Shown piece by piece: positions 2,142 through 53,077 of a stretch of DNA of 64,000 bases. How positions within the stretch are numbered: the first letter of the stretch is position 1; each line of letters begins with the position of its first letter. Origin of the DNA: Nitrospinia bacterium (GTDB lineage Bacteria > Nitrospinota > Nitrospinia > Nitrospinales > JAJDAT01); NCBI GenBank assembly GCA_029261715.1, contig JAJDAT010000035.1, forward strand, positions 351 to 64,350, given 5' to 3'. The translations under genes and the position numbers were made by a program. The notes beneath the pieces are model-generated. The model had not been told where the DNA came from. It worked only from the letters and a program-made list of their open reading frames with translations, and did no database searches.

Positions 2142-3620
2142 TTAAAACCGAAACTTTTCTAAACTTTTTATTTTAGGAGAATCTGTAAGTCCAAAGATTC
2201 CGTCAATTTTTAAATTGTTTCTACGGAGATCTAAATGCTTCAGAGATTTTAAGTTCTCTGATGTAGCGATTGAAGAAAGGCCTTTGTTGGTAATTAAATT
2301 GCCATTGGCCAAGAGTTCTTCAAGATTGGATAAGTTTTCTGATTTTGCTAAAGCTTGAATTCCAGGATCTCCCATAAAAACATCCGCAACCCAAAGGCTT
2401 CTCAACTCTGCAAAGTTCTTAGAATTGGCTAAATGCTTAATTCCTTTTTCTGTTAGATCATTATGGGTAACATTTAAGCTATTTAGATTAGTTAAAGTTT
2501 TGGATTGGGCAATAGCTAAAATTCCTGTCGAAGAAATTTTTGCTCCTTCAAGGTTTAACTTTTTCAAACTTCCAAGACAATTCGATTCTGCTAAAGCAAC
2601 AGCGCCTAAATCTCCAATTTCGTTGCTCATCAGATTTAGGTTTTTAATCCCCTTTGAGTTTTGAGACTCAGCTAAAGATAGAATCCCTCTACAACTGATG
2701 CTGTTATTCCTCAAACTTAACGTTTCTATATTATTCAGCGCTTCAGAACGAGCAAGGGATGCCATGCCTTTATCGCCTAAACCTTTGCCGTTTAGGTTCA
2801 GTGATTTCCCGTCCTCTGATAAGTTTTTTTTCAGAAGAGTTCTAATCCGGAAATCCAAAAGCGCCGTTTCCGTTTTACGTGAAAATTTATTGTCGTAAAA
2901 ATAAAAATCCTCTAAACCTTCTAAATGGGTCGAGCGGGCTAATGCGTTAGAGCCTTCGTCGCGTATGTAATTAGAATTCAGAAATAATTGCTTCAATTGA
3001 TTCATGGAAGCTGCCGACGCGAGAGCTTTGGCGCCTATGTCGCTTATCATATTCCAGCCCAGATTTAGGGAGTGTAATGGCGTGAAGGCCCCTGTCTGAA
3101 TCCAGTTTTTTAATGTGTCGTCGTTAATTTTGTTTCGTTTCAAGTTCAAACGTCTGAGATTTAAATTAGCGGTACCATCTGGATAATGGGCAATACCCTT
3201 TTTGCCGACTAAGTTTAATTCTAATTCCAAAATTTCTAATTGTTTTAGCGATGAAGATTTTATGAGTTCTAAAGCTCCTTCGTCGCTAATTATATTTTTG
3301 ACTAAACTTAGGAAATTTAAAGACGGGAAATTGTTTGAATCTGCGAAGTCCTTACATCCAGAGTTGCCGATTTTATTAGAATCCAGATTCAGCTTTTTTA
3401 AACTTGGAGCTTTTGCGTTTTTGGCGAAAGCGGATAGCCCGGCACTAGTGATATCATTCCAACCTAGATTTAAGCCAACAACATGAGATAGATCTTGCTT
3501 AGACAAAAAAGCAATTCCAGCGTCGCCTATGCGTTCGTAACTGAGATCGATAAAAGAATCTCGATCAAGCCGTTCTTTAATGACGCCAATAATGTATTCG
3601 TCTCGTTCGTTTGCATTCAT
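2142..3620 (-). CDS. Leucine-rich repeat protein, RNI/ribonuclease-inhibitor-like repeats (492 aa)
   Basis: About 28-aa repeats of the form L..L.L..N.IGD.GA.ALA.S..L..L throughout. No signal peptide. An internal segment (LLKKNLSEDGKSLNLNGKGLGDKG) resembles the N-terminus of the neighbouring paralogue. Confidence 0.85.
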   Translation of the reverse strand: MNANERDEYIIGVIKERLDRDSFIDLSYERIGDAGIAFLSKQDLSHVVGLNLGWNDITSAGLSAFAKNAKAPSLKKLNLDSNKIGNSGCKDFADSNNFPSLNFLSLVKNIISDEGALELIKSSSLKQLEILELELNLVGKKGIAHYPDGTANLNLRRLNLKRNKINDDTLKNWIQTGAFTPLHSLNLGWNMISDIGAKALASAASMNQLKQLFLNSNYIRDEGSNALARSTHLEGLEDFYFYDNKFSRKTETALLDFRIRTLLKKNLSEDGKSLNLNGKGLGDKGMASLARSEALNNIETLSLRNNSISCRGILSLAESQNSKGIKNLNLMSNEIGDLGAVALAESNCLGSLKKLNLEGAKISSTGILAIAQSKTLTNLNSLNVTHNDLTEKGIKHLANSKNFAELRSLWVADVFMGDPGIQALAKSENLSNLEELLANGNLITNKGLSSIATSENLKSLKHLDLRRNNLKIDGIFGLTDSPKIKSLEKFRF

Positions 3621-3624
3621 ATAA

Positions 3625-4302
3625 TTAATCGTTCGGAGTCTTTAAGTCGATATCTAAGGTCTCGAGTCTTTGGAGATTTTTTGAATCCTGCATCAATTCG
3701 AGGCCTTTAGGTTCAAGTTTGTTATAAGTAAGATGTAATTTTTTTAAGCTTTTTAATTGTGAAGTTTCTGCGAAAGCCTTCATTCCTGCAAATCCAATTT
3801 TATTAGAATCTAGTCGTAGATCTTTAAGTTTATTAAGGTACGGGGAATTTGCTAGAGCAATTGCTCCCTCGTCGCCAATTTTATTAAAGGATAAATCGAG
3901 AACTTCTAAATTGGAAAGGTTTTCAGAATTTGCTAAAGCTTCAGCGCCTTCAGGTCCGATTTTATTGGTGTAGAGGCTTAAATATTTTAATTTCGTCAAT
4001 TGGGACGATTCTGCTATAGCTTCTGCACCAACATTCCTAATACGGTTATCAAAAAGCCATAATTCTTTTATTGAAGAAAAAAATTCTGAATCGGCCATTT
4101 CCTCAAGGCAAATGTCTTTAATCTGGCAATTATGGAGGAAAAGGATCTCTAATCCTTCCAATTGGATATTTTCAGCAAAATCAATCGCTTCTTTTTCGCC
4201 AATTTTTTTATTAGAAAAGTCGAGCGTTTTGCCGTCTTTGCTCAAACCTTTTTTGATCCAGCGTCGTATGTAGGTGATGTCGTCAGTGGCATTCTTAGCC
4301 AT
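3625..4302 (-). CDS. Leucine-rich repeat protein, RNI-like repeats (225 aa)
   Basis: Same repeat type as the adjacent gene (LDLSFNKIGDEGAIALANSPYLNKLKDLRL...). It lies 4 nt upstream of the 492-aa paralogue, so the two are probably co-transcribed. Confidence 0.85.
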   Translation of the reverse strand: MAKNATDDITYIRRWIKKGLSKDGKTLDFSNKKIGEKEAIDFAENIQLEGLEILFLHNCQIKDICLEEMADSEFFSSIKELWLFDNRIRNVGAEAIAESSQLTKLKYLSLYTNKIGPEGAEALANSENLSNLEVLDLSFNKIGDEGAIALANSPYLNKLKDLRLDSNKIGFAGMKAFAETSQLKSLKKLHLTYNKLEPKGLELMQDSKNLQRLETLDIDLKTPND

Positions 4303-5906: not shown

Positions 5907-5933
5907 TAAAGTTGGTTCACTTTCTGCCGATAA
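5907..5933 (+). promoter_or_regulatory. Sigma-28 (FliA) promoter, consensus match
   Basis: TAAAGTTG (5907-5914), an 11-nt spacer, and GCCGATAA (5926-5933). It lies about 80 nt upstream of ATG 6012. Confidence 0.7.
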
Positions 5934-6011: not shown

Positions 6012-6440
6012 ATGGCAGAAGTTTCTGGCGGAATTTCAAACAGCATTCCAGTATCTAGAGGGATTGAAGCTCTAAAACGGCAAGAGAATTTAGCTGGGGC
6101 AGGATCTCCAGGACCCTCTTCTGAGCGTAAGCTCTTAGATTCTCAGGATAGTGCAGATCGAGTGCAAATTGGCGTTGAAGCTCGCCAATTAAATGATGAT
6201 CGACAGAGAAACCAAGATCTTCAAGAATCTCAGCGTGAAGGTCAACGCATAGCGGAAAATCAACAGGAACAAACCGCTCAGACTCAAGCCGTATCAAACC
6301 CTGTTGCATTGCCAGAGCAAAACCTGAGCCCATTTCGATCTGAACCTTCCCCAAATCGAGTGACTGAAAAATTTAAACAGTCCGAGTCTAGCCAAAATAG
6401 CAGTTCTCAAAAGGGACTCAATATCGACGTCCAAATTTAA
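6012..6440 (+). CDS. Q/E/S/N-rich disordered protein of the predicted sigma-28 regulon (weak FlgM-like motif)
   Basis: 142 aa of low complexity. DRVQIGVEARQL resembles the D[KR][IV].[IL]S..A..[LM] motif of FlgM anti-sigma-28 factors, but the usual C-terminal helix pattern is not evident. A consensus FliA promoter lies upstream. Confidence 0.5.
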   Translation: MAEVSGGISNSIPVSRGIEALKRQENLAGAGSPGPSSERKLLDSQDSADRVQIGVEARQLNDDRQRNQDLQESQREGQRIAENQQEQTAQTQAVSNPVALPEQNLSPFRSEPSPNRVTEKFKQSESSQNSSSQKGLNIDVQI

Positions 6441-44562: not shown

Positions 44563-45423
44563 TTAAATTTGGTTGTCTAAAAGTTGAAGTACAGATTGAG
44601 GATTCAAATTAGCTTGTCCTATCATAGCTGTAGATGCCTGTACTTGAATTTGATTTTTAGTCAAATTAGCAAAACTTTCTCCGAGGTCGGCGTCAGACAA
44701 GATAGAGTCAGCTCTGGTGTTTTCTTCAACAGAACGATCTAAATTCGATACTGTGCTCGCTAATCTTTCGGCGGCTACAGAGACTCGACTTCTAGTTTCA
44801 ATAACATCATCTAGCAAAATTTCAATCGCTTCGCCAGCGGCAAGCGCTGATTCTTGAGTATTGACAGAAAGTTGATCAAGGCCTGTAGCGGCAGATCTCA
44901 AGTCAGTGACATCTAATATATCGTTGAGGTTGAACCTGTTAGAAGCGCCTCCGTCTAATCCAGTTTGGATGATGTAAGGATCGCTAGCTCCCCTTGATAA
45001 GGAACCGTCTAACAATTTTTGTCCATTGAATTCTGTCGTGTTTGCTATTCGATCCAATTCTTCTCTGAGTTGATTGAATTCCAACTGAACGCTTTCTCGT
45101 TGGGTGTCGTTGATAGTTCCGGATGCCGATTGTTGCGATAACTCTCGAAGTCGAATCAAAATGGAAGAAACTTCTCCAATTGAGCCTTCTACGGTATTTA
45201 CTAGGGCGATGGCATCGCTAGTATTTCTTGAAGCTTGGCGTAAAACAAGGTTGTCGGATCGTAGCGTTTGAGAGATAGAAAAGGACGCGGAATCGTCGCC
45301 AGCTTGTTGGAACCTTTGTCCTGAAGCAACTTGCTTGATAGAATTTTCTAGCCTATCATTATTTGCTGTTAGGTTTCTTTGCGCGTTTTGAGAAACGAGA
45401 TTGGTAAAAATCTGTAATGCCAT
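44563..45423 (-). CDS. fliC: Flagellin, divergent paralogue (286 aa)
   Basis: MALQIFTNLVSQNAQRNL... N-terminus and ...QANLNPQSVLQLL C-terminus. No sigma-28 motif in the 103-nt gap to the upstream flagellin. Confidence 0.9.
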   Translation of the reverse strand: MALQIFTNLVSQNAQRNLTANNDRLENSIKQVASGQRFQQAGDDSASFSISQTLRSDNLVLRQASRNTSDAIALVNTVEGSIGEVSSILIRLRELSQQSASGTINDTQRESVQLEFNQLREELDRIANTTEFNGQKLLDGSLSRGASDPYIIQTGLDGGASNRFNLNDILDVTDLRSAATGLDQLSVNTQESALAAGEAIEILLDDVIETRSRVSVAAERLASTVSNLDRSVEENTRADSILSDADLGESFANLTKNQIQVQASTAMIGQANLNPQSVLQLLDNQI

Positions 45424-45465
45424 TTCAATTTTCCTCCGTGAAAAGTGATTTTGTCATACTGTTAT

Positions 45466-45479
45466 TAGCTTCCTTGCTA
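45466..45479 (-). promoter_or_regulatory. Leader hairpin with AAGGAA loop (CsrA-type site candidate)
   Basis: On the mRNA it reads UAGC-AAGGAA-GCUA. It lies about 30 nt upstream of the SD CGGAGGA (45432-45438). Confidence 0.4.
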
Positions 45480-45526
45480 AAACAATGGCAATTTCAATAA
45501 ATATTTTATTCAGTTTTATTCTAGAA

Positions 45527-46384
45527 TTACTGTAGTAATTGCAATACTGACTGCGGAATCAAGTTGGCCTGTCCTACCATAGCGGTAGAAGACTGAACCA
45601 AGATTTGGTTTCGAGTTAACAAAGCGACTTCTTCTGCGATATCTGCATCTCGAATAGCTGATTCTGCAGATGTTAGGTTCTCAATAGAAATCGATATGTT
45701 GGATATTGCTCTTACTAGCCGGTTTTGCACGGCGCCGACTTTACCACGGCCCTGCGTAACGACTGTTATTGCGGAATTCATTACATCCAAAGCTGTCAAC
45801 GCGGCGTCGGAGGCAGTAACGCTTAAAACGTCTACTCCTAAACCTGATGAAGTAATTGAACCAAGGTCGATTTGTTGGTTTAAATTAATTCGACTGTCTG
45901 CTGAGGAATCAATTCCGATTTGGATCAATATATGTTGATTGGATGAAATCGAAGATGAAAGCGATCCATCAATCAAACGTTGACCATTAAAGGAAGTCGT
46001 TTGCGCAATACGATCAATCTCGTTTCTTAACGCGGTGAATTCTAATTGGATAGTTTGACGTTCGGTAGAACCAACAGTTCCGGTAGCAGCTTGGGAAGCT
46101 AGCTCTCTCAATCTGATGAGAATCCCGGCTTGTTCGTTGAGCGCTCCTTCCGTTACGTTAATGAGCGCGATTCCGTCGTTTCCGTTTCGAACAGCTTGCC
46201 TTAGAGCTCGGATATCGGATCGTAATGATTCCGAAATTGCCAACCCTGCGGCGTCATCTGCTCCCCGGTTTACCCGGATTCCGGAAGCGATTCTTTCAAC
46301 TGAAGAAGCTAACCGGTCGTTGTTGATCCCCAAAATACGCTGAGCGTTCAGCGAGGGGATATTGTTAAAAATTCTTACTGGCAT
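45527..46384 (-). CDS. fliC: Flagellin (285 aa)
   Basis: MPVRIFNNIPSLNAQR...GADDAAGLAISE... and ...QANLIPQSVLQLLQ. Confidence 0.95.
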   Translation of the reverse strand: MPVRIFNNIPSLNAQRILGINNDRLASSVERIASGIRVNRGADDAAGLAISESLRSDIRALRQAVRNGNDGIALINVTEGALNEQAGILIRLRELASQAATGTVGSTERQTIQLEFTALRNEIDRIAQTTSFNGQRLIDGSLSSSISSNQHILIQIGIDSSADSRINLNQQIDLGSITSSGLGVDVLSVTASDAALTALDVMNSAITVVTQGRGKVGAVQNRLVRAISNISISIENLTSAESAIRDADIAEEVALLTRNQILVQSSTAMVGQANLIPQSVLQLLQ

Positions 46385-46422
46385 TTTAAAAATCCTCCGT
46401 GATTTTTAATTGTTTTAATTTC

Positions 46423-46434
46423 GGCATCCTTGCC
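46423..46434 (-). promoter_or_regulatory. Leader hairpin GGCA-AGGA-UGCC (CsrA-type site candidate)
   Basis: The mRNA reads ...UUGGCAAGGAUGCC..., close to the CsrA consensus CAAGGAUG. It is nested in a TGTTTT/AAAACA outer stem (46411-40). The SD is CGGAGGA (46393-46399). Confidence 0.45.
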
Positions 46435-46554
46435 AAAACAGTAAAAAAAAAGCTTTAATTCGATGTTACGTTTTAGTCATGCTTGTTTCCTTTATATATA
46501 GAAATTAAGTAGTTAAATTCCGAATATGATAGGTATAAGTGCGTCATAGATTTC

Positions 46555-46859: not shown

Positions 46860-47717
46860 TTATCCTAAGAGCTGTAATACTGATTGCGGGATTAAATTCG
46901 CCTGACCAACCATTGCCGTAGAAGCCTGTACCAGAATTTGGTTTCTGGTGAGTAACGCAACTTCTTCAGCGATGTCGGCGTCTCGGATAGCAGATTCCGC
47001 AGCTTGTAAGTTCTCAGTACTAACCGATATATTCGCGATTGCTCTTACGAGCCGGTTTTGTACGGCACCCACCTTACCACGGCCCTGGGTAACAACCGTT
47101 AAAGCAGCGTTGATCGAGTCGAGAGCGGTCAGCGCTCCTGCGGCTGATGTAACGCTTAGCGTGTCGATGCCAAGAGAAGATACTGTTACGGCGGTCAAAT
47201 CTATTTGTTGATTCAGGTTGATTCGACTATCAGCAGATGAATCCAATCCAATTTGGATCAGAATTTGATTGCTGGATGTTACGGTAGAAGATAGTGAACC
47301 GTCAATCAATCGCTGTCCGTTAAACTCAGTGGTGTTTGCGATACGGTCAATTTCGTTTGAAAGCGCCGTGAATTCGATTTGAATTGTTTGACGTTCTGTG
47401 GATCCAACAGTACCGGTAGAAGCTTGAGAAGAAAGTTCTCTTAGCCGAATCAAAATACCGGCTTGCTCATTCAAGGCTCCCTCCGTAACGTTGATCAATG
47501 CAATTCCGTCATTTCCGTTTCTAACAGCTTGTCTTAAGGCTCGAATGTCAGAACGTAATGATTCCGAAATAGCTAGACCAGCGGCGTCGTCGGCGCCTCT
47601 ATTGATTCTAATACCGGATGCAATTCTTTCTACTGATTGGGCGAGTCTATCGTTGTTGTTACCCAAGATTCTCTGGGCATTAAGCGAGGGAATGTTATTA
47701 AAGATTCGAACTGGCAT
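46860..47717 (-). CDS. fliC: Flagellin (285 aa)
   Basis: Canonical flagellin N- and C-termini. The first 72 aa are identical to those of the 48960-49817 copy. Confidence 0.95.
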   Translation of the reverse strand: MPVRIFNNIPSLNAQRILGNNNDRLAQSVERIASGIRINRGADDAAGLAISESLRSDIRALRQAVRNGNDGIALINVTEGALNEQAGILIRLRELSSQASTGTVGSTERQTIQIEFTALSNEIDRIANTTEFNGQRLIDGSLSSTVTSSNQILIQIGLDSSADSRINLNQQIDLTAVTVSSLGIDTLSVTSAAGALTALDSINAALTVVTQGRGKVGAVQNRLVRAIANISVSTENLQAAESAIRDADIAEEVALLTRNQILVQASTAMVGQANLIPQSVLQLLG

Positions 47718-47750
47718 GGTGATTCCTCCTTGAGTCGTGAATAACTAATG

Positions 47751-47778
47751 CTTGTTTTAACCTCCTTGCTAAAACAAG
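47751..47778 (-). promoter_or_regulatory. Leader hairpin with GCAAGGAGGU loop (CsrA-type site candidate)
   Basis: 9-bp stem CTTGTTTTA/TAAAACAAG with loop GCAAGGAGGU on the mRNA. A second CAAGGAGGA forms the SD (47724-47732). Confidence 0.5.
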
Positions 47779-47976
47779 TAACCAGGATGCTTCAAATGTA
47801 AAACTACAAATTTTTTTCTAGATAATTCTCCAAGAATTTCTTCGCCAACCAGGAAAAGGCGAAAAAAAATTGTTTTTTAGATCAAAAATCTTAAATTATT
47901 CAGTAATTTTTGCGCCAACCAGGTAAGGAGCTCAAATTACTTTCTAAATTAAAAGACTTTTTGCGTCTTGGAAGCT

Positions 47977-48112: not shown

Positions 48113-48871
48113 TTATAAGATTGATGAATCAGATCCAAATTTAAGCAATTGGACGACTTCTTTTCGAGCTTGCAATGATATATCGAGTTTAGAATCTTGT
48201 CTATTTTGCATCAAATTCTTCCAATAGATTTGTGTCCAAAGGAATTTATCGCTTATAGGACTTAAATTTGCTCGAAATTGCTTTAAAACGTTAGTTTCTT
48301 CGGAAATCTCCTCAATTATTTTGGAAGTTGGACTGAAACTGCTGAAAATGAATCGAGAAAAATTTCTTCCACAATAGCGTTCTGCTAATAATGGATTCAG
48401 AGATAATCCAGCTTTTATATATGATTCTTTTAAATCGCCTATTATGTTTGGCGGTAAAACTACCTCAAGAGACGTTTTATCGAAAATAAACTTTTCTTTT
48501 TCAACTAAAAGGCTAGAGTTAACATCCGTTTGCCTTATCAGTCTTTGGATAGCATTTTGTAAGTGAAGCTTATCTGTTTCATCCATATTAGGGGTTTTAT
48601 GAATGAGTAAAAGTTGACCGAGCAATTGAAGGCGCTTTGATTGTTTAGATAAAATTGCCTCACATTCTTTAATTTCTCTTAGATAGATCTGAGTCGAGCA
48701 TAATTTTTGATCTATAGAAAGATCTTTTATATCCGTTTTCTCGTTTTGCAATTCGCGAAACAAGTTCCCCATCGTTTTGGAGCGAGCGTTGGCGCTCGCT
48801 CTTTGTTTCTTTTCCGGAGAAAAGGGTCTTATAGAACGATCTTCGATTTTTATATGTAATGTTTTACCCAT
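48113..48871 (-). CDS. Unknown protein embedded in the flagellin array; possible highly diverged flagellin-derived protein (252 aa)
   Basis: Intact ORF with balanced composition, 88 nt downstream of a flagellin gene. By-eye collinear matches to the flagellin D1 helix (TDKLHLQNAIQRLIRQTD vs TERQTIQLEFDSLRTEID) and to the C-terminal ..VVQLL. It lacks the flagellin N-terminus. Confidence 0.55.
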   Translation of the reverse strand: MGKTLHIKIEDRSIRPFSPEKKQRASANARSKTMGNLFRELQNEKTDIKDLSIDQKLCSTQIYLREIKECEAILSKQSKRLQLLGQLLLIHKTPNMDETDKLHLQNAIQRLIRQTDVNSSLLVEKEKFIFDKTSLEVVLPPNIIGDLKESYIKAGLSLNPLLAERYCGRNFSRFIFSSFSPTSKIIEEISEETNVLKQFRANLSPISDKFLWTQIYWKNLMQNRQDSKLDISLQARKEVVQLLKFGSDSSIL

Positions 48872-48959: not shown

Positions 48960-49817
48960 TTATCCCAATAATTGCAAAACAGACTGTGGTATTAAGTTTG
49001 CCTGTCCAACCATAGAAGTAGAGGCCGCAACTAGAATTTGGTTTCGCGTTAGCAAAGCGACTTCTTCAGCAATATCGGCGTCTCTAATCGATGATTCGGC
49101 GGCTTGTAAATTTTCGGTTGAAACCGAAAGGTTTGAAATCGCGCGAACTAAACGGTTTTGTACGGCGCCGACTTTTCCTCGGGCTTGGGTTACGGCGGTG
49201 ATAGCGGAGCTTATTGAATCCAAAGCGGTTAAAGCTCCAGCGGCTGATGTTACGCTTAACGACTCTACGCCAAGTCCGGATGTTGTTACCGCAGATAGAT
49301 CAATTTGTTGATTTAAATTAATTCGACTATCTGTGCTGGAATCCAATCCAATTTGAACCAAAATGTGATTTGTGGAAGTAACCGTTGACGCCAAAGATCC
49401 ATCGATTAATTTAGTTCCGTTGAACTCTGTTGTGTTGGCAATACGATCAATTTCGGTTCGTAGGGAATCGAACTCTAATTGAATGGTTTGCCGTTCTGTC
49501 GAGCCGACAGTACCTGTAGATGCTTGCGACGATAGTTCCCTTAAGCGAATAAGAATAGACGCTTGTTCGTTTAGCGCTCCTTCGGCGACATTAATTAAAG
49601 AAATTCCATCGTTACCATTTCGTACGGCTTGACGAAGAGCTCGAATGTCAGAACGTAATGATTCTGAAATTGCTAGTCCAGCGGCGTCGTCTGCGCCTCT
49701 ATTAATTCTAATACCAGAAGCTATTCTTTCAACCGATTGTGCTAACCGGTCGTTGTTGTTTCCCAAGATTCTTTGAGCGTTCAAAGATGGGATGTTGTTG
49801 AAGATTCGAACAGGCAT
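48960..49817 (-). CDS. fliC: Flagellin (285 aa)
   Basis: Canonical flagellin N- and C-termini. Confidence 0.95.
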   Translation of the reverse strand: MPVRIFNNIPSLNAQRILGNNNDRLAQSVERIASGIRINRGADDAAGLAISESLRSDIRALRQAVRNGNDGISLINVAEGALNEQASILIRLRELSSQASTGTVGSTERQTIQLEFDSLRTEIDRIANTTEFNGTKLIDGSLASTVTSTNHILVQIGLDSSTDSRINLNQQIDLSAVTTSGLGVESLSVTSAAGALTALDSISSAITAVTQARGKVGAVQNRLVRAISNLSVSTENLQAAESSIRDADIAEEVALLTRNQILVAASTSMVGQANLIPQSVLQLLG

Positions 49818-49851
49818 GACTTTTTCCTCCTCCTAAGGATGTTTTTGTTCG

Positions 49852-49872
49852 CGATGATTGTCCTTATCATCG
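49852..49872 (-). promoter_or_regulatory. Leader hairpin with AAGGACA loop (CsrA-type site candidate)
   Basis: 7-bp stem CGATGAT/ATCATCG with loop AAGGACA on the mRNA. The SD is AGGAGGAGG (49826-49834). Confidence 0.5.
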
Positions 49873-49987
49873 ATTTTTTAGCGCGCTTAAAAAAAACACT
49901 AATGGAATTTAATTTAAATTCCGTAAAGCCAGATAAGCGTTAATTATGACCGCCTTGCTACTTTGGACGGTGATGCGCTCAACAAGG

Positions 49988-50014
49988 TTATCGGAGGAAT
50001 AGTTGATAACTTTA
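49988..50014 (-). promoter_or_regulatory. Sigma-28 promoter, consensus: TAAAGTTA-N11-TCCGATAA
   Basis: Reverse complement of 49988-50014; 171 nt upstream of flagellin ATG 49817. Confidence 0.8.
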
Positions 50015-50192
50015 GTTTGGAAAGTTTTTTGAAAAGGAAGATGAGTCTAGTTTTTCTTCTGGGTTGGTTTTAGAAAGCCAATAAAAATTATTTGAGGTAG
50101 CTCTAAAGAGCTTTGTTTGAGGGAACTTCGAAGATTGGCTAAGAACTATTCTGAAAAATATTTAGAGTTAAAAAAACGGAAAATATTTTTAA

Positions 50193-50231
50193 TTTTTTTT
50201 TGGAGCGGGGGTGAACCCGCTCCAAAAAAAA
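50193..50231. repeat. 39-nt near-perfect palindrome T9-GGAGCGGG-ggtgaa-CCCGCTCC-A8
   Basis: Read directly from the sequence, immediately after the stop of flagellin 50239-51096. On both strands the T-tract precedes the stem and the A-tract follows it. Confidence 0.7.
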
Positions 50232-50238
50232 GTTCGAA

Positions 50239-51096
50239 TTAGCCCAATAATTGTAAAACCGACTGCGGAAGTAGGTTAGCTTGACCCGCAACTGCGGTAG
50301 AAGAAGCAACCAAGATTTGGTTTCGCGTCAAATTTGCCACTTCTTCAGCAATATCAGCATCCCGGATAGCAGATTCTGCGGCTTGTAAATTTTCCGTTGT
50401 GGTGGCTAAGTTGTTAATAGCTCTTACCAACCTGTTTTGTACCGCACCCACCTTACCCCGAGCCTGAGTAACTAAAGATATAGCCGAGTTTACAGAGTCT
50501 AATGCGGTCAAAGCTCCTGCCGCCGACGTAACGGAGAGAGATTCAATGCTTAAACTGGTTGAAGAAATTGCTTGTAGGCCAATTGTAGTGTTGAAATTGA
50601 TTCGACTGTTACTCGATGCATCCAATCCTATTTGAACAATAAGTTGAGAATCCGTTGTTACTGTCGAAGCAAGCGATCCATCTAAAAGCCGGGTTCCGTT
50701 AAACTCGGATGTGTTTGAGATTCTATCGATTTCGTTTCTTAGTGAATCGAATTCAATTTGAATCGTTTGTCTTTCCGTGGAACCAACCGTTCCGGTTGAA
50801 GCTTGAGACGCCAATTCTCTTAAACGAATAAGAATGGAAGATTGCTCGTTTAAGGAACCCTCTGTCGTATTTAAAAGAGAAATACCGTCATTCGCATTTC
50901 TACTAGCTTGTCGTAACGCTCGGACATCAGATCTTAATGATTCTGAAATAGCCAATCCAGCGGCATCATCCGCGGCCCGATTGATTCTAACCCCAGATGC
51001 GATTCTCTCGATGGACTGTGCTAGACGATCATTGTTGTTACCCAAAATTCTTTGCGCGTTTAATGAGGGGATGTTGTTATTAATTCGGACCGGCAT
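50239..51096 (-). CDS. fliC: Flagellin (285 aa)
   Basis: MPVRINNNIPSLNAQR... and ...QANLLPQSVLQLLG. Confidence 0.95.
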   Translation of the reverse strand: MPVRINNNIPSLNAQRILGNNNDRLAQSIERIASGVRINRAADDAAGLAISESLRSDVRALRQASRNANDGISLLNTTEGSLNEQSSILIRLRELASQASTGTVGSTERQTIQIEFDSLRNEIDRISNTSEFNGTRLLDGSLASTVTTDSQLIVQIGLDASSNSRINFNTTIGLQAISSTSLSIESLSVTSAAGALTALDSVNSAISLVTQARGKVGAVQNRLVRAINNLATTTENLQAAESAIRDADIAEEVANLTRNQILVASSTAVAGQANLLPQSVLQLLG

Positions 51097-51176
51097 GGTT
51101 TCCTCCGCCTAATAGTTAGATGGTTTAATTATTTAAAAAGACCAGGTTTTATTAAAAAAAAGCCTAATGGCTATTA

Positions 51177-51650
51177 TCAAATTTTCCGATAAAGCAGATA
51201 GGGGGTAAATACTCCAAAGTTTTGGAGAAATAAAATAAACCCTTCCACTTCGGTATTTCGGCAAAAAAACGTAAACTCTAAATAAGTTTTTCTGAAAAAA
51301 AGCGCTTTTTTATAACTAGAAGCGATTTTTTCTTTAATTTGTAAAAAAACGCTTGAGACTATTGTCATAAAAGCCGTTATGAACGATGAGGGATACTGTG
51401 CTTTATAGATCCAGCGAAACCCAAAAAGCTTCTCCTCAACGGGAATATCGGAAGAAATATCAAGTACTTTAAGATTAAATTTTTGAAGCGAGTTTTTGGT
51501 ATCTATTGAAATTAACTTTAAGAAATTAAACAAAAATTCCGTTAAGACCGATGCCCCAAGCTGTATTTTTCCTTTATAATTCAAAAAGCTAAAGGAAGCC
51601 TTATCGGGTTTTTCGGATAAAAAATTAAAATGTATTAGTTTAATTTTCAT
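51177..51650 (-). CDS. Unknown F/K/L-rich protein (157 aa) between a sigma-28 promoter and a flagellin gene
   Basis: A 157-codon open frame is improbable by chance in such AT-rich sequence. However, there is no convincing SD, the composition is skewed and no family is recognised. Confidence 0.4.
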   Translation of the reverse strand: MKIKLIHFNFLSEKPDKASFSFLNYKGKIQLGASVLTEFLFNFLKLISIDTKNSLQKFNLKVLDISSDIPVEEKLFGFRWIYKAQYPSSFITAFMTIVSSVFLQIKEKIASSYKKALFFRKTYLEFTFFCRNTEVEGFILFLQNFGVFTPYLLYRKI

Positions 51651-51777
51651 TTTTTAAATATTTCTTGGATTTTTGATTTAAAAGCTTCAAGGTACTTTAT
51701 TTATTTTCCGTTAAGTTCGATGAACCAAAGACCTTTCTTTCGTAAATTTTATTAAGCCGAAATATGTCCTATCCTGG

Positions 51778-51804
51778 TTATCGGAAAAAAAGTTAATAAC
51801 TTTA
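51778..51804 (-). promoter_or_regulatory. Sigma-28 promoter, consensus: TAAAGTTA-N11-TCCGATAA
   Basis: Reverse complement of 51778-51804; 128 nt upstream of the ORF 51177-51650 ATG and 682 nt upstream of flagellin ATG 51096. Confidence 0.65.
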
Positions 51805-52106
51805 GTTTCGAAGTTCTTTTTTTTCAAAATTTAAAAAAAACCTTTCTATAAAGGAACTCAGGTTTTTTTCCGATAAACTCGATGAGGTGTTATAGAATCT
51901 TTTTTCAAACATTAAAGTTCTATGAAGCCATATCTTATTTTTCGGGAAAAATCTTGAGGGCTTTAGAAAAAAATTCATCTTTAATGAATCCTAAAAATAA
52001 CTTTTTAAATTTCGCTTATATAAATAAGGTAAAATCCCGTAAAAAGAGATAAGCAGCCTATGGCCTTCCGAATGGAAAATGTTGGCTGCAATTAACCTTA
52101 ACTTTG

Positions 52107-52133
52107 TTATCGGGAAAAATAATTAGAACTTTA
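52107..52133 (-). promoter_or_regulatory. Orphan sigma-28-like motif: TAAAGTTC-N11-CCCGATAA
   Basis: Reverse complement of 52107-52133. No credible ORF lies within the next 300 nt on the minus strand. Confidence 0.5.
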
Positions 52134-52159
52134 GCCCGTTTGCAAAAAAGGCAATAAAA

Positions 52160-53077
52160 TTGAATAAAGCAAAGAAAATAAAAAAGGGAGACTTGATTGG
52201 AATTGTCTCTCCGGCGGGGCCTACGGATTCTGGTGAATTGCAGAATGGAATAAGCGTTCTGAAGAAAATGGGGTTCCGTAGTGTTTTAGGAAAGAATGCT
52301 TTATTACGAGATGGGTTTCTAGCGGGTTCGGATGAGGAAAGAGCCAGAGATTTCATGGATATGGTTAAAAACCCTGACGTAGCGGCTATTTTATGCGCGC
52401 GTGGAGGCTATGGGATTAATCGAATCCTTTCGTATTTAGATTTTGACCTAATTAAAAAGGTACGCAAACCTATTATTGGCTCAAGCGATATAACGATCCT
52501 ATTAAATTATATAAATAGTAGATGCTCTCTAATTTCTTTCCACGGTCCAATGGCAGCAGGAAGTTTTGGCCGAACGCCAATGACGAAATCGCGTAAACCC
52601 TTTTGCCAAGCGCTCATGGGAGATATGGATATGTATAGTTACTCGAAACGCAGCGCTTGGACTATAAATTCGGGGCAAGGGGAGGGGCGATTGGCGGGAG
52701 GATGCTTGACTCTCATGATTCGTTCTCTTGGCACACCCTTCGAGATTAAAACGCGAAACCGGATTTTAATTATTGAAGACGTTAACGAAAGACCTTACAA
52801 AATCGATGGAATGTTATGGCAATTAAAAGAAGCTGGGAAATTTAAGGGGATTCGTGGAATAGTTTTTGGAGAAATGATTAATTGTCAGCCAAACAAGAAT
52901 GAAACGTATACATTAAGGAAGACGATATCGGAATTCTTCAAAACTGACGATTTTCCTATCTTGATGAATTGTCCCGTTGGGCATGGAAAAGAAATGTGGA
53001 CTTTGCCGCTCGGGGTTCCGGCAATTTTGGATTCGGAAGCGAAAAGCTTAACAATAAAAGAAAATGGAGCGGTCTAA
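52160..53077 (+). CDS. ldcA: LD-carboxypeptidase (peptidase S66, LdcA-like)
   Basis: GIVSPAGP, the nucleophile region [27 protein letters not shown], and a C-terminal GHG. TTG start. Confidence 0.85.

Follow-up and report, generated by a model that had tools for sequence, protein, structure and literature searches.

What are three sigma-28-like promoter motifs doing in a tract with no flagellin gene directly behind them? Few genes of motile bacteria are controlled as strongly and tightly as those encoding flagellin; the layers known so far comprise FliA promoters, CsrA-FliW, and a small number of UTR-derived sRNAs. Marine Nitrospinota are nitrite oxidizers without genetics. The question arises from a 64-kb stretch of DNA (here called the window) of an uncultured Nitrospinota bacterium, in which the original prediction described such motifs at 51651-52159 and offered three readings: relics of collapsed flagellin cassettes, a promoter cluster titrating FliA, or promoters for unannotated sRNAs. 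The minus-strand motifs at 51778-51804, 51939-51965, and 52107-52133 are present letter for letter, with a measured spacing of 161 and 168 nt and the core CGGGAAAAAT shared by the second and third; so is an oppositely oriented motif, TAAAGGAA-N12-TCCGATAA, at 51849-51876 on the plus strand. The boundaries of the tract do not hold. The three TAAA-N16-CCGATAA motifs are units A to C of a minus-strand tandem array of six units (52134 to 51097), and three further units, D to F, lie in the region of the neighboring open reading frame (ORF) at 51177-51650.

A six-unit promoter-leader array upstream of the first flagellin gene

Each array unit is a copy of a flagellin promoter plus 5'-leader module, about 165 nt long, and the units run through a called 157-aa ORF (ORF157) up to the start codon of fla1, the first flagellin gene. 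Two boxes recur in all six units: the first is of the sigma-28 type, and the second (ATCG-N8-CGG), which repeats the -10 core in inverted orientation, follows about 85 nt further downstream. Units A, C, and E have strong sigma-28-type boxes; those of B, D, and F are weaker, with departures from consensus in either the -10 element (CCGAAAA) or the -35. Across the array, a T-run-CCGATAA-like element recurs about every 80 nt in alternating orientation; a proper -35 stands at canonical distance from the minus-strand boxes but is missing from most plus-strand ones. The extension of the array into ORF157, the second conserved box of each unit, and the maintained reading frames described below are features beyond the original prediction.

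With a sigma-28 promoter defined as a -35 TAAA(GTTT) followed after 15 nt by the -10 element GCCGATAA, the predicted sigma-28-like character of the motifs is supported. The boxes of units A and C (P_A and P_C; the others are named likewise) match TAAA-N16-CCGATAA without mismatch, P_B and P_E have one mismatch each, and P_D and P_F are degenerate. The same element stands before real flagellin genes, namely, fla2 (no mismatch), fla3 (one mismatch), and the flagellin of the outgroup L007. It is also enriched, with nine matches at one mismatch or fewer in the window against 2.9 +/- 1.6 in shuffled sequences, none of 100 shuffles reaching nine, and seven of the nine lie in the flagellin locus. The fliA gene was not found within the 64-kb window.

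The units are paralogs of each other, with z-scores relative to dinucleotide shuffles of 7.9 for C-D, 5.7 for D-E, and 5.3 for B-C. Their suspected kinship with flagellin leaders is supported: the corresponding z-scores against the fla2 promoter-leader are 5.2 for D and 4.3 for A, and a unit profile (nhmmer) recovers exactly seven minus-strand copies in the 64 kb, with E values of 1e-17 to 1e-23. The same seven copies are found in L002, L003, L004, and L055, six in L067, whose sequence is shorter and stops before fla2, and one in the outgroup L007. Tandem Repeats Finder detected no array; the units are only about 50 to 60% alike, and anchored alignment plus a profile was required. A higher-order repeat of ~330 nt, spanning two units, was rejected as the primary period: it mirrors the alternation of strong and weak boxes, and units C and D are more alike than are A and C or B and D, which makes the 165-nt unit primary.

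Elements of the individual units

Coordinates in this section refer to the minus strand unless stated otherwise. Unit A starts with the strong box P_A (TAAAGTTC-N11-CCCGATAA, 52107..52133), an exact match present in all orthologs, even those of L005 and L067, which are distant. The P_A block and the divergent ldcA promoter must overlap, and P_A conservation may partly stem from that promoter. The second box (GCTTATC..TTTACGGGATTTTACCTTATTTATATAAGC, 52014..52054) is the most conserved block of the unit and the counterpart of a fla2-leader motif. Such a resemblance had been noted before, and the array string TCCCGTAAAAAGAGATAAGCAG is indeed present at 52035-52056, but its flagellin-leader counterpart, TCCGTAAAGCCAGATAAGCG, lies at 49920-49939, ~10 nt from the place originally given. 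In a P_A transcript, predicted pairing joins the second box to the 5' end, UAAGGUUAAUU, which is invariant; as the box side is invariant too, covariation is lacking. At the end of the unit, RNAalifold predicts a hairpin (AGGAUUCAUU/GAUGAAUUUU, 51967..51992) followed by UUUU(G/U)UU; the 5' arm of the hairpin includes an SD-like GGAG/AGGA, and its 3' arm includes the ATG of a second frame, ORF-B. The pairs are kept in six of seven sequences with one or two compensatory pairs, and the stem is weak and AU-rich.

Unit B begins with the weaker box P_B (TAAAGCCC-N11-CCCGAAAA, 51939..51965), which has one mismatch, lies inside ORF-B, and keeps TAAAG and CCCGAAAAATAAGATAAGG in 9 to 10 genomes. It is followed by hairpin B1 (AUAGAACUUU...AAAGAUUCUAU, 51892..51923), for which RNAalifold reports three compensatory pairs, all from L005, and by the second box (CATCGAGTTTATCGGAAAAAAACC, 51860..51886), the reverse complement of the P_C -10 region, whose GGA is invariant in nine of nine genomes. 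This box forms an inverted repeat with 51771-51791 (86% complementary over 21 nt). The plus-strand, sigma-28-like site at 51849..51876 points toward ldcA and has a spacer one base longer than that of the minus-strand sites; its TAAAG is kept in 9 of 10 genomes, with variable flanks, and unit B as a whole also matches the unit profile on the plus strand (E = 8e-9). The predicted end hairpin CCUUU-AUAG-AAAGG plus U8 (51833..51854) recurs as a 4- to 5-bp stem with varying loops in most close relatives and is absent in L005 and L067. In unit C, P_C (TAAAGTTA-N11-TCCGATAA, 51778..51804) is an exact match ~120 nt upstream of the ORF157 ATG. It shares 82% identity over 45 nt with the fla2 promoter, is invariant in eight close genomes and L067, and is deleted in L005. 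The second box of unit C is CATCGAACTTAACGGAAAATAAAT (51700..51724).

The remaining units largely coincide with ORF157. P_D (TAATAC..TCCGAAAA, 51610..51637) is degenerate here, with a proper TAAAGC..ACCGAAAA in L067, and the second box of unit D (GGGCATCGGTCTTAACGGAATTTTTG, 51530..51556) is invariant in eight of eight close genomes; in L005 and L067 it lacks GGA and reads CATCGACCTTTTCGGTA, and in L070 it reads CATCGGTCTTTTCGG. P_E (TAAAGTAC-N11-TCCGATAT, 51445..51471), with one mismatch, reads KVLDISSDIPV in ORF157 and is a perfect TAAAGTTC..TCCGATAA in L070; the second box of its unit is CCTCATCGTTCATAACGGC (51368..51391). Unit F was recovered by nhmmer at E = 8e-18. Its degenerate box P_F (TAGAGTTT-N11-GCCGAAAT, 51255..51280) is conserved in all lineages and is the promoter-like box nearest to fla1. 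Downstream of it, the second box (CTATCTGCTTTATCGGAAAATTT), a triple in-frame stop TGA-TAA-TAG (51179-51171), and a hairpin AGCC-AUUA-GGCU plus U8 form one block (51154..51204) that is invariant in all lineages. This block, which codes for the C-terminus of ORF157, is conserved even in L070, where ORF157 ends ~60 nt earlier and the block lies outside it, indicating a constraint on DNA or RNA rather than on protein. The seventh copy of the unit is a single one, the fla2 promoter and leader (49818..50015, E = 2e-22), and is followed by an AAGGA-loop hairpin and an SD.

Conservation and origin of the array

Comparison with the loci of relatives, as the original prediction had proposed, shows that the order and spacing of the array are shared by about ten metagenomic genomes in three lineages. 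All twelve boxes are retained in the divergent lineages L067 and L070, and the spacer between ldcA and ORF157 measures 509 to 514 nt in every six-unit genome. L005 has five units after the precise loss of one (P_C is deleted), and the outgroup L007 has a single unit. A DNA-pattern scan of metagenomes yielded eight loci, of which only two were homologous.

Divergence amounts to 0.06 to 0.10 in the boxes and 0.22 to 0.34 in the spacers, compared to 0.38 to 0.57 at the four-fold sites of fla1 and ldcA; the boxes evolve 5 to 6 times and the spacers about 2 times more slowly than these sites. The array tract is under purifying selection, without decay, and its slow divergence means that the units are not decaying relics. 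No flagellin coding remnant was detected in the tract by tblastn (best E, 0.13 to 1.7) or blastn (E of at least 0.087), each run on a 2-kb database, and hhalign gave a probability of 0.08% for flagellin coding similarity. The array originated by tandem duplication of a single promoter-leader, of which the outgroup has one copy and fla2 retains one copy, and was later maintained by selection.

Two reading frames kept open across the units

ORF157 (51177..51650, minus strand) overlies units D and E and most of F, and ORF-B (51802..51978, minus strand; 58 aa here and 75 aa in five relatives) lies over unit B. The original claim that no ORF of 60 aa or more is found in the tract is literally true, with frames of 58 and 56 aa, but it overlooked that the 58-aa ORF-B is open in nine related genomes. 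Are these frames ordinary protein genes? ORF157 has 157 aa in 11 genomes, with indels in multiples of three only, and ends early in the divergent L070; ORF-B, whose 75-aa form ends in tandem stops, is broken in the distant L067. In genomes gathered independently of gene calling, polymorphic stops occur 0 times in the own frame of the two ORFs versus 6 to 23 times in other frames (ORF157, 0 versus 15 to 16; ORF-B, 0 in frame 0 versus 12 and 6 sites elsewhere).

Among the marks of a conventional gene, a conserved frame is present in ORF157 and ORF-B, whereas an excess of third-position changes and support from homologs, domains, or fold are missing. The minimum numbers of substitutions at the three codon positions are about equal (76/89/88 in ORF157 and 35/41/43 in ORF-B), and dN/dS is 0.4 to 1.2 in ORF157 and 0.4 to 1.6 in ORF-B, compared to 0.01 to 0.05 in fla1. 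Their dS is 2 to 4 times below that of fla1, indicative of nucleotide-level constraint. The GC content is 27% in ORF-B and 31% in ORF157, with genes at 34 to 46%, and the conserved amino-acid blocks coincide with promoter and second boxes. In the invariant N-terminal block of ORF157, both of the two substitutions are synonymous. ORF157 has no Pfam match even at E <= 10, only four matches among 1.84 billion representatives, all from the clade, and no confident predicted fold (mean pLDDT, 37.6); a protein search with the fused frame of L005 gave no match, and clear SD sequences are absent from both ORFs. Two identities of ORF157 were considered and rejected, a flagellin fragment (the EKIAS/ERIAS match is due to chance according to hhalign and tblastn) and a known flagellar protein such as FliW, FlaG, FliS, or FlbT (Pfam empty, fold not confident). 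The annotation "hypothetical protein" should not be read as an ordinary protein gene.

Predicted RNA structure and GGA motifs

Could the units release short RNAs? AU-rich stems of 4 to 10 bp with U-runs follow units A, B, and F, and where a unit has both, a hairpin/U-run comes at about +100 to +135 from its promoter. With 4 to 6 AU-rich pairs, the unit-end hairpins are weak, and they are missing as conserved elements from L005 and L067, which makes the release of short RNAs doubtful. The fold z-scores of the unit RNAs are -2.6 for A, -0.9 for B, and +0.5 for C, RNAalifold reports three compensatory pairs each in units A and B, mostly from a single sequence, and Rfam returned none at the gathering threshold and only noise at E <= 5. 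A base-pairing sRNA was rejected, since duplexes of the A, B, and C RNAs with the translation-initiation regions of fla1-5, hyp252, ORF157, and ORF-B are no better than those of shuffles (z, -2.0 to +1.4). Pairing of each second box with the next -10 region in read-through RNA, attractive for B to C (14 bp), was likewise not retained: with both partners nearly invariant, covariation lends it no support.

The sense strand has 16 GGA in 1,081 nt versus 7.9 expected. One conserved (A/U)CGGA is found per unit, often starting a small hairpin loop, with unit D as the exception in L005, L067, and L070; this is about one conserved GGA per unit and not the dense series of loop GGA motifs of a sequestering RNA of the CsrB/RsmZ type. 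The leaders of fla2-fla5 have a classical AAGGA-loop hairpin and SD hairpin, and the array units correspond to the promoter-proximal part of such a leader, upstream of the AAGGA hairpin. A tblastn search of the window and related loci found no csrA, fliW was not seen in the sequence examined, and a literature search on CsrA or FliW in Nitrospinota returned nothing usable.

How the array may act on fla1

The motifs, periodicity, paralogy, purifying selection, maintained frames, and absence of coding relics, all of them directly observed, describe a region that is retained. We put at about even the chance that it is an amplified control region rather than debris, in which stacked FliA promoters feed a translated fla1 leader and may release leader-like RNAs. 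Once FliA is active, RNA polymerase would start at several of the co-oriented promoters, and transcripts would proceed toward fla1 through a 1-kb leader kept translatable; P_A would lead into ORF-B and P_C into ORF157, with P_B, P_D, P_E, and P_F embedded in those frames. Unit-end hairpin/U-tract elements might free part of these transcripts as leader-like RNAs of about 100 to 135 nt. FliA dependence, transcription starts, translation, and read-through into fla1 are what we infer from the sequence. The model offers no clear reason why six promoters should beat one strong promoter, and the proposed coupling of stop codons to hairpins is not universal, given the broken ORF-B of L067 and the early end of ORF157 in L070. 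More tentatively, and with a probability well below even, the 157-codon frame over three units may have arisen de novo and be kept as a frame only, with leader translation and/or leader-mimic RNAs gating FliA-driven transcription into fla1; the passage of ribosomes over the promoter-studded leader would then count, not the product.

Promoters driving unannotated short transcripts, one of the original readings, are possible. In its full form, each unit would be a small gene whose FliA-dependent RNA of about 100 to 135 nt copies the 5' part of a flagellin leader and sequesters a leader-binding regulator (CsrA-like or other), lifting the repression of flagellin translation once FliA is on. The promoter and hairpin/U-run at about +100 to +135, the conserved (A/U)CGGA per unit with its GGA surplus (16 versus 7.9), the AAGGA-loop and SD hairpins of fla2-fla5, and precedents in the C. 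jejuni flaA leader (PMC4894983) and E. coli sigma-28 sRNAs (PMC10578931) speak for it. We nevertheless regard it as improbable: about one conserved GGA per 165 nt is far under the density of sponge RNAs, the D box has none in L005, L067, and L070, terminator stems are weak and lost at distance, fold z-scores are modest with no Rfam match, a search of the window and related loci turned up no csrA, and the open frames are left unexplained. Those frames would be accounted for if P_A and P_C, each ~120 nt upstream of an ATG, were ordinary promoters of small orphan protein genes, ORF-B and ORF157, of flagellar role, the periodicity being a historical by-product. Open frames with indels in threes, tandem or triple stops, and the two synonymous substitutions in the invariant N-terminal block of ORF157 agree with such genes, but we think them unlikely in view of equally substituted codon positions, a dN/dS of 0.4 to 1.6 with dS 2 to 4 times below that of fla1, amino-acid blocks that are DNA boxes (one conserved outside the ORF in L070), a pLDDT of 37.6, homologs limited to the clade, a GC content of 27 to 31% versus 34 to 46%, and the broken ORF-B of L067.

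Might the DNA itself be the functional element? Twelve alternating CCGAT-type elements could bind a protein without productive transcription and set the threshold or timing of late flagellar expression, the candidate binders being FliA holoenzyme, which would be titrated or form a poised reservoir, and some other regulator recognizing the inverted boxes. A CCGATAA-like element alternating in orientation about every 80 nt, second boxes that are reverse complements of the -10 region, and a spacing that is rigid across lineages would suit this platform; yet no precedent is known to us, the minus-strand boxes carry a proper -35 that most plus-strand ones lack, and frame maintenance stays unexplained, so we give it only a slim chance. 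Very unlikely, too, is that the tract serves mainly as the promoter and long 5' leader of ldcA, with the plus-strand site at 51849-51876 driving it. In favor, TAAAG and CCGATAA of that site are conserved, and given the position of the ldcA start (TTG at 52160, GTG in L055), no other obvious place for a promoter is left. Against it, at most units A and B would be accounted for and not the units within ORF157, the site has a spacer longer by one base than it should be, and the region in front of ldcA in the outgroup L007 is only 265 nt and has a minus-strand promoter. Birth-and-death evolution, invoked in the original prediction, applies to the units, one of which was lost in L005 and of which L007 has one, but not to collapsed cassettes, of which no coding trace is left. 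Homology of the units to the flagellin promoter-leader and their variable number (five in L005) are what presently functionless, decaying relics would show; purifying selection, with four-fold sites evolving 5 to 6 times faster than boxes and about 2 times faster than spacers, identical architecture in three lineages, and the absence of residual flagellin coding similarity make such relics exceedingly improbable.

A clade of marine Nitrospinota retains a 1-kb, six-fold amplified promoter-leader module under purifying selection. If the promoters fire, the array would be a natural case of promoter stacking and/or leader mimicry. It would also be an unusually clean instance of an ORF preserved as a frame across functional promoters, relevant to how new coding sequence emerges from regulatory DNA. 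If they are silent, the rigidly spaced inverted -10-like boxes still demand an explanation. Should the frame-only reading be true, a control device would have been made from copies of a gene's own promoter and leader.

Comparison with known systems

The consensus of FliA (sigma-28/sigma-D) class-III flagellar promoters is TAAAGTTT-N11-GCCGATAA. P_A, P_C, and the fla2 promoter match it at 14 of 16 positions with canonical spacing, and P_E and fla3 end in GATAT, as does the B. subtilis sigma-D consensus. All of these lie in a flagellin locus and on the flagellin strand; unlike the usual FliA promoters, six co-oriented predicted copies precede one gene at ~165-nt intervals, four of them inside ORFs and half of them degenerate.

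Sigma-28-dependent UTR-derived sRNAs, such as UhpU, MotR, FliX, and FlgO of E. coli (PMC10578931), alongside a FliA-dependent sRNA of C. jejuni (PMC11187230), are short, come from the UTRs of flagellar genes, and feed back on flagellar synthesis (PMC10578931, PMC11187230). Units A and B resemble them in having a promoter and a hairpin/U-run about 100 to 135 nt apart. They differ in that sequence or Rfam kinship and significant complementarity to flagellin translation-initiation regions are absent, the terminators are weak, and the units are tandem leader paralogs rather than processed UTR ends. Flagellin 5' leaders are controlled by CsrA-FliW (PMC4894983, PMC6529632), and the flaA mRNA leader of C. 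jejuni titrates CsrA (PMC4894983). The AAGGA-loop and SD hairpins of fla2-fla5 and the (A/U)CGGA of the array units recall these leaders, whereas the array GGA is sparse and not universal, and csrA and fliW were not seen in the sequence examined.

The array units may also be set beside tandemly duplicated regulatory RNA genes such as Qrr1-5 and LhrC1-5. In both cases, short paralogous units follow one another head to tail under individual promoters that belong to one sigma class. The RNA genes differ in that their Hfq-type sRNAs fold well, end in strong terminators, and are not overlapped by an ORF, whereas array structure is weak and ORFs cross the units. The stops of ORF157 abut a hairpin and U-run upstream of fla1, as in leader-peptide attenuators, although ORF157 is putative as a leader peptide and the stop-hairpin geometry is lost in L070; to our knowledge, known leader peptides are all far shorter than 157 codons. 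With a frame that is kept, little amino-acid constraint, and an intergenic-like composition, ORF157 is similar to overprinted or de novo ORFs.

Six promoter-leader units between ldcA and fla1

In this window, from an uncultured Nitrospinota (Nitrospinales) bacterium, five flagellin genes lie on the minus strand, fla5 (44563-45423), fla4 (45527-46384), fla3 (46860-47717), fla2 (48960-49817) and fla1 (50239-51096), with ORF157, a called 157-aa ORF, upstream of fla1 (51177-51650, minus strand) and the divergent ldcA beginning at 52160 (plus strand). The 1.06 kb from ldcA to the fla1 ATG consists on the minus strand of six units (A to F) of 156 to 190 nt, each opened by a sigma-28-type box, strong in P_A (52133-52107), P_C (51804-51778) and P_E (51471-51445) and weaker in P_B (51965-51939), P_D (51637-51610) and P_F (51280-51255). 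The original prediction had described three such motifs here; all its quoted strings are present, and repeat finding recovered their 161/168-nt spacing and the leader-like motif noticed with them. It also gave a higher-order spacing of 333/329 nt linking 52108, 51779 and 51446, and it matched the motif at 51776-51820 to the fla2 promoter at 82% identity over 45 nt. Allowing up to one mismatch, TAAA-N16-CCGATAA has 9 matches in the window versus 2.9 ± 1.6 in shuffles (0/100 reach 9), seven of them in the flagellin locus: the three predicted motifs, the promoters of fla2 and fla3, and a further two inside ORF157.

A second box lies ~85 nt downstream in every unit (core ATC(G/T)-N7-8-(C/G)CGG, typically CATCGxxxTTAACGGAA). 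This box and the T-run-CCGATAA -10 region are reverse complements, so that one -10-like element follows another about every 80 nt in alternating orientation, and unit B fits the unit profile even on the plus strand. At the end of several units, a short AU-rich hairpin precedes a U-run.

Semi-global alignments against dinucleotide shuffles relate the units to one another (z = 7.9 for C-D, 5.7 for D-E and 5.3 for B-C) and to the fla2 promoter-leader (z = 5.2 for D, 4.6 for C, 4.3 for A and 3.1 for F); the fla3 and fla4 leaders show no relation to them in these alignments. On the minus strand of the 64-kb window, a unit profile HMM picks out exactly seven copies, A to F plus the fla2 promoter-leader (E = 1e-17 to 1e-23). 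Four related loci (L002, L003, L004 and L055) have the equivalent seven; the outgroup L007, left out when the profile was built, has a single one (E = 2e-7). In L007, the flagellin gene directly adjoins ldcA across a 265-nt spacer with one promoter, CTAAAGTTATCAATATTTCATCCGATAAC. The simplest history is tandem amplification of one flagellin promoter-leader.

The LdcA beside the tract is 85-86% identical to that of three Nitrospinota MAGs (L002 to L004), 79% to that of L005 and 53-56% to those of L006 and L007; the window's contig was also found in a Logan assembly. ldcA begins with TTG here (52160) and with GTG in L055. Directly after fla1 lies a strong, GC-rich 26-nt inverted repeat (50184-50241) with 85% complementarity and T/A runs on either side, which resembles a bidirectional intrinsic terminator parting fla1 from the fla2 unit. 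Between fla3 and fla2, a 252-aa protein of no assigned family (48113-48871, minus strand) has a counterpart of 249-253 aa at the equivalent place in all related loci, and its sole match is a sub-threshold Flagellin_N (E = 0.11, residues 67-116). Farther away, a perfect sigma-28 consensus, TAAAGTTG-N11-GCCGATAA (5907-5933, plus strand), lies ~80 nt upstream of a Q/S/E-rich 142-aa ORF without a Pfam match (6012-6440, plus strand), which may be a further late flagellar gene, FlgM-like or FlaG-like. Two neighboring leucine-rich-repeat proteins of 492 and 225 aa (2142-4302, minus strand) are unusual for a free-living nitrite oxidizer lineage.

Conservation of the array across relatives

Orthologous DNA was collected via LdcA (L002 to L005), a DNA pattern (L061, identical to L004, and L062), ORF157 homologues (L055 to L058) and an exhaustive profile search (L067 to L070). 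The ldcA-ORF157 spacer measures 509-514 nt in all six-unit genomes, and conservation peaks about every 80 nt, in alternation, coinciding with the twelve boxes. Pairwise divergence is 0.06-0.10 in the boxes; it is 0.22-0.25 in the spacers of A-C, 0.22-0.34 where ORF157 lies outside the boxes, and 0.38-0.57 at the four-fold degenerate positions of fla1 and ldcA. L067, a divergent marine lineage with an ORF157 protein that does not join the others' 50%-identity clusters, keeps all six promoters (at 476, 644, 807, 974, 1141 and 1328) together with every second box; L070 keeps units D to F; L005 has five units, one having been precisely removed when the second boxes of B and C recombined. The tract is thus under selective maintenance, and its units can come and go as whole units.

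In L005 (reverse complement, 2240-2330), a hybrid B/C second box marks the deletion, which fused the ORF-B frame, lying over unit B, to that of ORF157. At the contig end of L057 (1-80), where unit A (promoter and second box) would be expected, the sequence bears no relation to that of the other genomes; either the assembly is chimeric here or unit A has been replaced in this lineage.

Two frames kept open

ORF157 has 156-157 codons in eleven genomes, and its indels are exclusively multiples of three. Among four genomes obtained without reliance on gene calling there are at least 202 substitutions, which would be expected to create ~11 new stops but have created none; polymorphic stop sites number 0 in frame 0 versus 15 and 16 in the other two. 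ORF157 is not a gene-caller artefact in a trivial sense.

Minimum substitutions at codon positions 1/2/3 are 76/89/88, dN/dS is 0.4-1.2 with dS two to four times below that of fla1, and GC content is 31% versus 34-46% for genes. ORF157 has no match in Pfam and only four among 1.84 billion representatives, and its predicted structure has a mean pLDDT of 37.6. Its conserved amino acid blocks are the DNA boxes (KVLDISSDIPV is P_E; ASVLTEFLFN is the D second box). In L070 the homologue stops 60 nt early, at 139 codons, while the DNA encoding the C terminus that is invariant elsewhere is still conserved. By these measures ORF157 does not evolve like a protein gene. It ends in three consecutive in-frame stops overlapping the 5' arm of a hairpin (AGCC-AUUA-GGCU) plus U8; downstream of the shortened L070 homologue (420-470), the F second box, hairpin and U-run are all still conserved.

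ORF-B (51978-51802, minus strand; 58 aa here, 75 aa in five relatives) behaves the same way, its frame kept and its evolution unlike that of a protein gene. It is open in nine genomes (polymorphic stops 0 versus 12 and 6 in other frames) and broken in L067; its ATG sits in the 3' arm of the unit-A hairpin, and the 75-aa form ends in tandem stops of varying identity.

RNA features of the array and the flagellin leaders

Single-sequence fold z scores are modest (A, -2.6; B, -0.9; C, +0.5; whole array, -2.1). RNAalifold supports a 5'-end/second-box helix in unit A, both sides of which are invariant, the unit-A 3' hairpin and a unit-B hairpin that has compensatory changes from L005. Complementarity to flagellin translation-initiation regions was nowhere significant. 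GGA is ~two-fold enriched on the sense strand, at roughly one conserved copy per unit, and is absent from the D box in three genomes.

Each of the fla5 to fla2 leaders (45430-45480, 46400-46450, 47730-47790 and 49830-49880) is predicted to fold into an AAGGA-loop hairpin and a hairpin presenting the GGAGG SD. This pairing is the classical CsrA two-site arrangement. A CsrA-controlled flagellin leader system has been described (PMC4894983, PMC6529632). Neither hairpin occurs in the final 80 nt of the fla1 leader, and this leader is predicted to be unstructured (z = +1.85). A tblastn search of the window and related loci turned up no csrA, and the window contains no fliA. The fla3 leader carries a 33-nt direct repeat (47824-47856 and 47894-47926; 79% identity, 70 nt apart) containing CCTGGTTGGCG, and its CCTGGT recurs in the fla1 leader as AAAACCTGGTC, invariant in all lineages; as a sigma-54 site it is not convincing.

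Interpretation of the array

The array is real: a conserved, periodic, selectively constrained amplification of a flagellin promoter-leader, whose boxes are FliA-type, of the kind preceding actual flagellin genes, and across which two reading frames are kept open. We give roughly even chances to a composite model in which FliA holoenzyme would use the boxes, transcripts would proceed toward fla1 through a translated leader, and unit-end hairpins would release part of the output as short leader-like RNAs.

Ordinary promoters serving two orphan protein genes would suit the stop-free frames and sit poorly with how those frames evolve; we regard this reading as unlikely. Leader-mimic or decoy RNAs, close to the sRNA promoters of the original prediction, would draw on the leader ancestry and terminal hairpins of the units and are likewise rather unlikely. 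A DNA-binding or FliA-titration platform, the latter also among the earlier readings, would fit the conserved boxes more readily than the open frames and is improbable. Only ~25 nt separate the ldcA start from the opposite-strand P_A box, which means that the promoter of ldcA has to overlap unit A. That the tract is an ldcA leader is very improbable. Least probable are neutral relics: this reading of the tract, as collapsed flagellin cassettes, is alone in being clearly contradicted, and tblastn and blastn (all E > about 0.1, 2-kb database) and hhalign (probability 0.08%) found no flagellin coding remnant in it.

The array is moderately interesting as it is, and would be highly so if flagellin expression turns out to be gated by leader translation or by leader mimicry. 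The closest known systems are class-III flagellar promoters, sigma-28-dependent UTR-derived sRNAs (PMC10578931, PMC11187230), CsrA-controlled flagellin leaders and tandem sRNA gene arrays; what sets the present array apart from each is that it combines six promoters of one orientation with second boxes that are inverted -10-like elements and with a frame-only ORF lying over them.
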